Assembly: GCA_951406725.2 (NCBI GenBank)
Contig: OX597816.1
Coordinates: 62,620,001 to 62,684,000 of the forward strand
Source: Octopus vulgaris
Taxonomy: Eukaryota
DNA length: 64,000 bases
Reading direction: 5' to 3'
In this document: positions 1,892-30,541 of the stretch, piece by piece
Numbering within the stretch: position 1 is the stretch's first letter
Layout of the letters: each line of letters opens with the position of its first letter
Position numbers and translations under genes: made by a program
Notes under the pieces: model-generated
What the model saw: the letters and a program-made list of their open reading frames with translations, nothing else
Told to the model about the DNA's origin: nothing
Databases searched by the model: none

Positions 1892-1892
1892 T

Positions 1893-2570
1893 AGGAAAAA
1901 AGCAACAAGAATGGATTAAAATCTCGGTACGATCGTTTCGTACGAGGACATCTTTAATAAGCTACAAAAAATGCAGTGAATACAGATGGCTCGTACTCGT
2001 CAGCCGAAAAAATATCAGAGAATTCCCAAACATCAAAAGGGGTAGATACAAAAGAGGATGTAAGATTAGCTGCATTGAAGAAAGTTCGATTCATGGAGAT
2101 CCGATGAAAGGTTTTAAACCTATAGAATTTATGCATGTCTACATATAGCTCATATTGAATATTTGATCAAGTTGTATGAAGAAATTTTCGGATACAGTCA
2201 TACAAAATTTCTGAAAATCCGAGTAAGAGGCAAAGTGACTGCCATATCATGTAGAGGAAGGTCAGAGTAAAGGCATAGTGACTGTCATATCGTGTAGAGG
2301 AACAGATTGTTATTGAAATTTACAAGAATCGCAGATAAGTTCGATTTTTTGGAGATCCGATGAAAAAGTCTTGAACTTACAAAATTTGTGTATGTCCTTA
2401 TAGTTCATAATCCAGTTTTGTGGAGAGATTTAGGGTACAATCATGCGAAAATATCAGGGAATCCGAATGAGAAGCAAAATGACGGTCTTATATTGTAGTG
2501 GTTCAGGTTGTTAATGAAATTTTCAAGAATCACAGAAAGAGGAGGAAGGAGGTAGGAATTTAATCAGTTA
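1893..2570 (-). mobile_element. Hammerhead-bearing repeat island (Penelope-like 3' end candidate); inverted paralogue at 29868-30480
   Basis: About 610 bp match 29868-30480 in reverse complement; internal duplicated unit of about 250 bp; ends about 30 nt after a hammerhead, at a (TA)n tract. Confidence 0.75.
1922..2009 (-). ncRNA. Type I hammerhead ribozyme, intact core, extended stem II
   Basis: tttcgg CTGACGA gtacgag...ctcgtac GAAA cgatcg TA ccgaga: 6-bp stem I, 7-bp perfect stem II, palindromic stem III, GUA cleavage triplet. Confidence 0.88.
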
Positions 2571-2645
2571 CTGCTATTTAAGCTGTCAAAGAGAAAGGAA
2601 AGGGGAAGCTAAGGGGATGGGCACAATTTGATACTAACAATTTGA

Positions 2646-6493: not shown

Positions 6494-6605
6494 ATATATA
6501 AATTCAGGGTGAATACTTGATAACTGTAAGCACCTGTATAAGCCAGTTAGTGGTGTAGGTGATAGGGTATATTTATCAAAAGAAAAGCAGGATGCAAAGG
6601 ATTTA

Positions 6606-6692
6606 GCGGTACATATGTTTCTGGCTTTATTGGACAGTTTATATCAATGCATAATTGATGTAGCATGTATGTCAATAGCCTTCTTCAGCCGC
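6606..6692 (-). ncRNA. Type I hammerhead ribozyme (left arm of palindrome)
   Basis: gcgg CTGAAGA a ggctattg...caataaagcc a GAAA catatg TA ccgc on the minus strand. Confidence 0.75.
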
Positions 6693-6754
6693 GCACAATT
6701 ACCACACCAAAGACATGTATTACATTATATATGTCTTTGGTGTGGTAATTGTGC

Positions 6755-6841
6755 GCGGCTGAAGAAGGCTATTGACATACATGCTACATAAATTATGCAT
6801 TGATATAAACTGTCCAATAAAGCCAGAAACATATGTACCGC
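6755..6841 (+). ncRNA. Type I hammerhead ribozyme (right arm of palindrome)
   Basis: gcgg(6755-58) CTGAAGA(6759-65), long stem II, GAAA(6826-29) catatg TA ccgc(6838-41). Stem II is closed by an A-A mismatch. Confidence 0.75.
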
Positions 6842-6868
6842 TAAATCCTTTGCATCGCGTTTTTCTTT

Positions 6869-6906
<38 letters not shown>

Positions 6907-26492: not shown

Positions 26493-26600
26493 ATACTAGC
26501 TACGGCGGTAGATATTCTAAAATTAGAACGATACAGAGAAGATTAGCATAGCCCCTACGCAAGGATGACACGCAAATTCGTGAAGCATTCCATATTTTTT
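26493..26600 (+). pseudogene. U6: U6 snRNA full-length copy, probably a pseudogene
   Basis: ctaaaattagaacgatACAGAGAagattAGCatagcccctacgcaaggatgacacgcaaattcgtgaagcattccatattttt is colinear with metazoan U6. Several G>A changes, including in the internal stem-loop, and a damaged 5' stem. Confidence 0.93.
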
Positions 26601-27577: not shown

Positions 27578-27624
27578 ATAGTGCTGATGAGCTGAAGTAA
27601 CAGCGAAATATCGTTATCTACTAT
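27578..27624 (+). ncRNA. Compact type I hammerhead ribozyme, intact core
   Basis: atagtg CTGATGA gctg-aagtaa-cagc GAAA ta-tcgt-ta TC tactat: all three stems pair; AUC site after 27618. Confidence 0.85.
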
Positions 27625-29725: not shown

Positions 29726-29776
<51 letters not shown>

Positions 29777-29867
29777 GGTTATGTAATTGAGATTCTAGTG
29801 AATTCTAAAGAATTCACATGAATATGGTCCTTAACCAGGATGCACCGGATATCTATATGGTGTTAGC

Positions 29868-30477
29868 CACTACAATATAAGGCTGTCATTTTTGCTTCTC
29901 ATTCGGACTCCCTGATATTTTCGCATGATTGTACCTTAAATCCCTCCACAAAACTGGATTACGAACTATAAGGACATACACAAATTTTGTAAGTTCAAGA
30001 CTTTTTCATCAGATCTCCAAAAAAATCGAACTTATCTGCGATTCTTGTTAATTTCAATAACAATCTGTTATTCTTCTACACGACATGACAGTCACTATGT
30101 TTTTACTCAGACTTTCCTCTACATGATGTGGCAGTCACTTTGCCTCTTACTCGGATTTTCAGAAATTTTGCATGACTGTATCCGAAAATTTCTTCATACA
30201 ACTTGATCAAATATCCAATATGAGCTATATGTAGACATGCATAAATTCTATAGGTTTAAAACCTTTCATCAGATCTCCATGAATCGAACTCTCTTCAATG
30301 CAGTTAATCCTACAACCTCTTTTATATCTACCCCTTTTGATGTTTGGGAATTCTCTGATATTTTTTCGCCTGACGAGTACGAGCCATCTGTATTCACTGC
30401 ATTTTTTGTAGCTTATTAAAGATGTCCTAGTACGAAACGATCGTACCGAGATTTTAATCCATTCTTGTTGCTTTTTT

Positions 30478-30480
<3 letters not shown>
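29868..30480 (+). mobile_element. Hammerhead-bearing island, inverted paralogue of 1893-2503
   Basis: Near-identical reverse complement; ends in (TA)n at the same position. Confidence 0.75.
30364..30451 (+). ncRNA. Type I hammerhead ribozyme, intact core
   Basis: tttcgc CTGACGA gtacgag...ctagtac GAAA cgatcg TA ccgaga; one mismatch each in stems I and II compared with the 1922-2009 copy. Confidence 0.8.

Positions 30481-30541
<61 letters not shown>

Follow-up and report, generated by a model that had tools for sequence, protein, structure and literature searches.

A type I hammerhead with a long three-helix stem II in the pLTR of a Hydra-clade PLE of Octopus vulgaris

We report on a window of 64,000 nucleotides from Octopus vulgaris (assembly GCA_951406725.2, contig OX597816.1, positions 62,620,001 to 62,684,000 of the forward strand; positions below are those of the window) in which two copies of a Penelope-like retroelement (PLE) each carry, in the pseudo-LTR (pLTR), a hammerhead motif with an unusually long stem II (Table 1). 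On the minus strand of copy 1, stem I is formed by UUUCGG (2009-2004) and CCGAGA (1927-1922), the core CUGACGA (2003-1997) is followed by stem II (1996-1940) and GAA, helix III is the 8-nt palindrome ACGAUCGU (1936-1929), and A17 lies at 1928. Stem II consists of the helices GUACGAG/CUCGUAC, CAUCU/AGAUG and CUGCA/UGUAG, and both copies have CUGACGA, GAAA and GUA in type I order. The preliminary description of this DNA had recognized that the hammerhead is complete, that its stem II is long and its helix III palindromic, and that a second motif retains the core, all of which can be read directly in the sequence; it also placed correctly the predicted cut, between 1928 and 1927. A structural scan of the reversed window, both strands, gave zero hammerhead matches, and the stem II interior has a folding z of -4.0, with none of 300 shuffles equally low. 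The hammerhead families of Rfam had no match in the window at the gathering score or at E up to 10, a miss that is likely due to the long insertion.

Table 1. Coordinates of the PLE copies, hammerheads and related features in the window
Feature	Position	Strand	Basis
Copy 1: 5'-truncated Hydra-clade PLE insertion, 3' UTR and pLTR, ORF absent	1892..2639	-	blastn to full-length L068
Copy 1 hammerhead: type I, intact, 57-nt three-helix stem II, GUA triplet	1922..2009	-	sequence, pair counts, folds
AUUAAA hexamer, 3' side of stem II internal loop, candidate pLTR poly(A) signal	1953..1958	-	subfamily survey; function inferred
Old internal duplication of ~170 nt in 3' UTR (2082-2257 vs 2337-2501, 71%)	2082..2501	-	sequence
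Sister-family (F6-like) head-to-head insertion, two hammerheads, 60-nt stem II	6497..6872		structural scan, family context
Copy 2 inverted long 'B' tail, 94 of 118 nt, (TA)n at end	29776..29869	-	sequence, blastn
Copy 2 body: 5'-truncated 3' UTR and pLTR, short 'A' end in (TA)n	29867..30481	+	sequence, blastn
Copy 2 hammerhead: core intact, G>C at 30369, C>A at 30429	30364..30451	+	sequence, fold

Copy 1 lies between (TA)n tracts; its short 'A' end is at 1892, and at the 5' junction 13 nt are locally duplicated. A boundary had been drawn at 2501, and the alignment to L068 shows that the element really continues beyond it (Table 1). No match was obtained when the element ORF was used in tblastn against the window. 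The tail of copy 2 overlaps its body by 3 nt. Both substitutions in the copy 2 hammerhead are helix-breaking: the G>C change breaks the closing pair of stem I and the C>A change falls within stem II, so that the claim of a retained paralogue holds for the core, while the motif as a whole is predicted to misfold.

The window has other features as well. The sole Rfam match is a U6 snRNA (26496-26599, plus strand, 101 bits) with several substitutions and a common repeat directly after it. A 166-nt inverted repeat (840-1005/1538-1703, 95% complementary) surrounds 532 nt, is bounded by (TA)n and is either MITE-like or another inverted insertion, and a 208-aa frame (62293-62919, minus strand) resembles the C-terminal portion of a LINE RT, with frames like it next to several of the loci. 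Moreover, a short-stem hammerhead candidate of another family lies at 27578-27624 (plus strand; 6-bp stem I, 14-nt stem II, near-palindromic helix III, UC triplet), and weaker hammerhead-like matches at 42501 and 56783 (both plus strand) have spacers of 55 nt and 17 nt, respectively. Outside the window, hammerheads of unrelated families with a 12-31-nt stem II adjoin the elements studied here at L069:6878, L080:1758 and L139:6002 (all minus strand).

A search for copy number and for ORF-bearing parents, as the preliminary description had proposed, yielded both. The 631-nt island gave 931 first-look candidates in the 2.8-Gb genome, the best 40 of these 931 being 97-100% identical; a 25-mer of the subfamily has 352 exact genome matches (control 0), and a pattern for the lineage has 2,606 (control 1). 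Intact ORFs of 1,071/1,072 aa are present in two parents, L066 and L068, with the hammerhead, the short end and the tail upstream of the ORF. The unit of ~4.8 kb reads pLTR with hammerhead, 208-nt leader, a single ORF (RT, then GIY-YIG), ~1.4-kb 3' UTR and pLTR, and L068 and others show the pLTR-ORF-pLTR partial tandem that characterizes PLEs. Pfam gave no significant family for the ORF, and the PLE assignment therefore rests on motifs and on alignment with homologues. Non-LTR retrozymes, i.e. non-coding tandem repeats with a hammerhead in each, were considered and rejected, since we find dispersed truncated copies of an ORF-bearing element. In addition, a piece of P0016, annotated as an ankyrin-repeat protein, is 67% identical to the element RT over 40% of the query, and this is probably a gene model fused with an element.

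The Hydra clade is defined by RW[R/K], DKT, a CxCX5C linker, CxxC, CxH and the absence of CCHH (Craig et al. 2021, PMC8557442, sections on clade definition). In the octopus ORF we find RWR (RWK in sister subfamilies), ADKT, CNCRIKSKC, CQLC and CIH together with a C-terminal endonuclease, and no CCHH motif was seen. The likeness to the clade as described in those sections extends to the order of RT and GIY-YIG in a single ORF, the (TA)n targets, the pLTR hammerhead, the inverted 5'-truncated arm and the tail at one end. The differences concern size. The octopus element, with its ~4.8 kb, 1,071 aa and two Asn-rich inserts that lengthen the protein relative to homologues, departs from the Hydra tendency to short elements (<3 kb), which in PMC8557442 is a tendency and not diagnostic; its tail is ~118 nt against 30-40 in the clade; and its stem II spacer measures 57 nt, whereas none of the 26 Hydra rows in File S2 of the same paper exceeds ~26 nt (our own count). 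Hydra-1_Obim, as given in that source, has a different N-terminus and a short-stem hammerhead and hence belongs to another family. A precedent in length is PLE-X1_sMoe in File S2, with a stem II domain of ~53 nt (our own count); this is an endonuclease-less, rDNA-targeting spike-moss element of unrelated sequence, marked there as deviating from the canonical structure. The hammerhead is real and its kind is known; the family is new, within a clade already described.

The three-helix stem II, 46-60 nt long, is common to the lineage in this genome. Among 20 subfamily sequences picked from 42 distinct ones, the structure described above is paired in 87.6% of cells compared with 34-52% for slid partners, and the pairs of stems I and II vary through GC, GU and AU. 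The covariation score exceeds that of 500 out of 500 shuffles, a value that relatedness can inflate. The middle helix is weak among close subfamilies, where two pairs are unpaired in 17 and 12 of the 20 sequences, in part because of gap placement. More distant families have the same three-helix plan in different letters (stem II interior z of -2.3 or lower in only 10 of 14 family representatives), and the helix III palindromes differ by family (ACGAUCGU, ACAAUUGU and ACAUAUGU). Taken together, the GC/GU/AU series in the two stems and the three palindromes argue that the helices are kept by compensatory change, within the limits that relatedness sets on the shuffle control. The sister family F6 (RT 59% identical) has 1,407 matches in the genome (control 0), a 51-nt stem II and the palindrome ACAUAUGU. 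Families F3-F5, in which stem I has decayed in most copies examined, are tied to the lineage only by the ribozyme, the tail layout and one RT fragment.

Outside relatives differ in the length of stem II. Hammerheads were found in 61 of 78 Hydra-like metagenome loci, and all 67 spacers listed are 10-29 nt, so that by sequence comparison the stem II arm of the octopus lineage appears to exceed that of its relatives two- to fivefold in length. In an RT tree of this genome's RTs and homologues (stops read as X; P0016, the host-gene fusion, left out), the ten RTs of this genome fall on one side of a branch with 99/97 support, versus 22 homologues; the tips L142 and L145 are labelled as long-stem group, with the hammerhead not found in the stretch fetched. 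By eye, a short TTGAGCAC motif recurs in many of the outside Hydra-like loci (L153-L230), either a little upstream of the ORF start or following the hammerhead; it is a candidate signal for protein binding or for priming.

The loci fetched contain 107 distinct ends, of which 53 are short (mostly 34-38 nt beyond the cut), 44 are long (mostly 151-161 nt, ~118 nt further) and 10 are internal and run into the ORF. Head-to-head pairs within 7 kb combine one short and one long end in 27 out of 27 cases, each with an inverted 5'-truncated arm and a one-sided tail, as described for PLEs in the relevant parts of PMC8557442. The arms are at least 97.6% identical in 21 of the 27 pairs; the values of 85-95% in the other six probably come from alignments that overrun the junction. 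The window itself holds such a single-event pair at 6497-6872, with cores at 6688 (minus) and 6759 (plus), a long end to the left, a short end to the right and AAUAAA 16 nt before each cut. The defined element 3' end deduced earlier is accordingly real as an end shared by the two window copies, 34-36 nt beyond the cut, and is one of two termini. The ~118-nt tail folds into hairpins and is three to four times longer than the described PLE tail.

In the PAc Poseidon element of Anolis, two internal starts of reverse transcription account for the tail, as found in vitro (Frangieh et al. 2024, PMC11167929, in the results available to us). By analogy, the two octopus end sites, ~35 and ~154 nt past the cut, may be internal reverse-transcription starts, one for each nicked (TA)n strand. 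On this view, the octopus element and PAc as described there have in common a tail bounded by two starts, nicking of both strands at AT-rich targets, a hammerhead upstream of the starts and the copying of uncut RNA; they differ in that PAc belongs to another clade and has its starts inside the ORF with a 30-40-nt tail, while the octopus sites would lie ~118 nt apart in a non-coding leader. Both insertion ends are downstream of the cut. Of 13 ORF starts examined, five hold the cut, and in all five the 5' pLTR reaches 55-322 nt upstream; the other eight are truncated downstream of the cut and, by eye, none is truncated at it. At either end, inserted copies retain sequence from both sides of the cut, so the RNA that was copied was uncut or re-ligated, and cutting would then act on another RNA pool than the reverse-transcription template (unit-length or messenger RNA).

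The leader between cut and ATG (L068:1848-2059, L081) has conserved hairpins closed by a long-range helix, in which the U-rich stretch after the cut is paired with bases around the start codon; upstream ATGs also occur in it, as does, 5 nt short of the start codon, an acceptor-like sequence. An intron, suggested by this sequence or by a similar one in stem II, gained no support, the AG and GT of stem II not being kept in all subfamilies. The pLTR of L066 is covered by contigs from eight runs, for seven of which an RNA origin was guessed, and some of the contigs span the cut; neither a splice joint nor a loose poly(A) end was seen there, but such contigs show neither ends nor strand and hence weigh on neither side.

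Fold predictions suggest that a single hammerhead of this type would rarely form. The probability of helix III is at most 0.04 in the monomers of all 20 subfamily sequences. With two molecules, the MFE fold of copy 1 is a double hammerhead (-60.4 versus 2 x -27.2 kcal/mol), i.e. 6 kcal/mol below two monomers at standard state, which fits the dimer model for PLE hammerheads as put forward in PMC4209133. The RNAalifold consensus of the 20 sequences is not a hammerhead and has instead the distal hairpin plus an alternative hairpin that joins the 3' strand of stem II to the cut site. The latter has a probability of at least 0.33 in 12 of the 20 sequences, of 0.00 in copy 1 and of 0.89 in copy 2, and the copy 2 hammerhead is thus predicted to be misfolded into this off-state hairpin. 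The published PLE hammerheads, as far as described in the accessible sections of PMC4209133, likewise are type I with a 7-bp proximal helix II and a palindromic helix III, depend on dimers, and in metazoans cleave poorly in vitro; those presented there are without a multi-helix extension of stem II and without a poly(A) hexamer.

Stem II of the octopus lineage also contains an AWUAAA hexamer. In copy 1 an AUUAAA ends 25 nt before the cut and sister subfamilies have AAUAAA; in all 20 subfamily sequences one of the two ends 25-26 nt before the cut, within stem II. In F2 and F6 the hexamer is at -17 to -24, and in F3-F5 the long stem II is without it, 11 of 13 copies having it at +12 to +19. In hammerheads outside this genome, a hexamer ends at +5 to +15 in 39 of 68, equal to 15 of 27-29 sequence clusters. 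The rate in background windows of the same size is 1%, and shuffles predict 1.3-1.4 clusters; the DNA is AT-rich, and the +5 to +15 interval was chosen after seeing the data. The idea of a poly(A) signal was formed on the 20 subfamily sequences and the wider survey came afterwards. By eye, further AAUAAA sites are present in the long 3' UTR, and the ends of the metagenome contigs neither carry a poly(A) tail nor accumulate at the cut.

The preliminary description had treated the two window copies as one inverted duplication 28 kb apart that could form long-range dsRNA if co-transcribed, and several observations bear on this and on what the hammerhead does. That the copies are arms of one giant element, or one insertion split by rearrangement, with a 610-bp inverted repeat that could form dsRNA, would agree with their head-to-head orientation, as in true pairs, and with their termination at the same base. 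Yet both copies are short-ended, whereas all 27 close pairs combine a short and a long end; their islands are 95% identical over 646 aligned nt and the copies 95.6% alike, below the figure for most true pairs; and each is closer to copies elsewhere, the nearest relatives outside the window being 99.0% identical to copy 1 and 96.9% to copy 2. Copy 2, having its own inverted long tail, is a complete head-to-head insertion by itself, and ~0.7 chance pairs within 30 kb are expected from ~250 insertions in 2.8 Gb. We therefore regard a common origin as one unit as very improbable, and both a giant element and a terminal-inverted-repeat DNA transposon were rejected on the ends, the tail and the identities; judged from their sequences, the window copies are independent insertions. 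Long-range dsRNA between them would need a 28-kb read-through transcript, and such an RNA would contain one sense and one antisense copy and hence no double hammerhead. The motif pairs reported in the relevant part of PMC4209133 are 100-700 bp apart on opposite strands, and the 28-kb inverted pair itself is ordinary and incidental. For the ribozyme, a non-cutting role as a structural or protein-binding pLTR element, held off by the long stem II and the alternative hairpin, would be in line with the dominance of that hairpin in many subfamilies, with an uncut template and with the finding, in the data seen from PMC11167929, that PAc hammerhead mutants still insert in vitro, i.e. that PAc transposes there without hammerhead cutting. 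It is at odds with the conservation of the catalytic core, the NUH triplet and a palindromic helix III of varying sequence between families that share only 59% RT identity, and with the motif's presence in most of the outside loci (61 of 78), and we hold it to be distinctly unlikely. The opposite proposal, that cutting and re-ligation produce a unit-length circle as template and run-on reverse transcription the variable 5' pLTR, was made by Cervera and de la Pena (PMC4209133, in the portion consulted) and suits the presence of an intact ribozyme at each end and the 55-322-nt reach of the 5' pLTRs; the same anatomy is explained by an uncut longer-than-unit transcript, the dominant PAc substrate according to that part of PMC11167929, and the circle seems to us unlikely. 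We are highly confident of the reading preferred here, in which the motif is a hammerhead in the pLTR of a young Hydra-clade PLE, the window copies are independent 5'-truncated (TA)n insertions, and the ribozyme, which is predicted to be inactive when single, likely needs a double hammerhead or the element protein in order to cut.

With respect to the hexamer, a spacing of 25 nt fits a TATA box with a start near the cut, and the AT-richness of the DNA would make coincidence plausible as well. AUUAAA is the commonest tolerated variant of the poly(A) signal, and the only change seen in the subfamilies is that from AAUAAA to AUUAAA. Moreover, U/GU-rich sequence follows the cut, and within -60 to +40 the hexamer is single in 19 of 21 representatives of this genome and never double (0 of 21). 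Promoters do occur in pLTRs, and the Penelope promoter is TATA-less (both according to the text seen of PMC2377424, in which the word 'polyadenylation' is absent). A promoter box or a chance AT-rich string is, on this evidence, quite possible if somewhat doubtful, and we lean slightly towards the long stem II carrying a working pLTR poly(A) hexamer, which outside relatives would keep just 3' of the cut. A search of the open-access literature found no paper on the long-stem variant or on a hexamer-hammerhead link. A parallel is the discontinuous Clec2 hammerhead (review PMC6765202, in the passage on this ribozyme), which also has a large insertion and a cut tied to a poly(A) signal. The Clec2 cut strips the signal from the mRNA, as the outside Hydra layout (+5 to +15) would; unlike in Clec2, the hexamer of the octopus lineage would remain on the upstream product. 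One step further, and more tentatively (we consider it rather unlikely), Hydra-clade pLTRs may couple the hammerhead to the poly(A) signal, moved here into an enlarged stem II, with the ribozyme domain as a switch. In that case the hammerhead would compete with the poly(A) machinery for one RNA at nearly one cut position, the outcome being either a polyadenylated message without the reverse-transcription start sites or a read-through RNA that stays uncut and is copied into the genome.

Earlier publications already describe pLTR hammerheads, (TA)n targets, tails and a helix III of the dimer type; what is new is the 46-60-nt three-helix stem II and the shift of the hexamer from after the cut into stem II, and the long tail with its strict end rule also sets the family apart. 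The genome holds ~4,000 such motifs (2,606 and 1,407 matches), whose spacers went undetected by Rfam here and would also escape short-spacer descriptors. The family is young, has intact ORFs and follows a strict two-end rule, through which the two-strand priming model can be read in genomic copies. The only in vitro PLE system, PAc, does not need its hammerhead, as reported in the available part of PMC11167929. Finally, a hexamer fixed in position beside the cut in many Hydra-like families, together with its shift into stem II in the octopus lineage, provides a direct test of a possible link between ribozyme and 3'-end processing.
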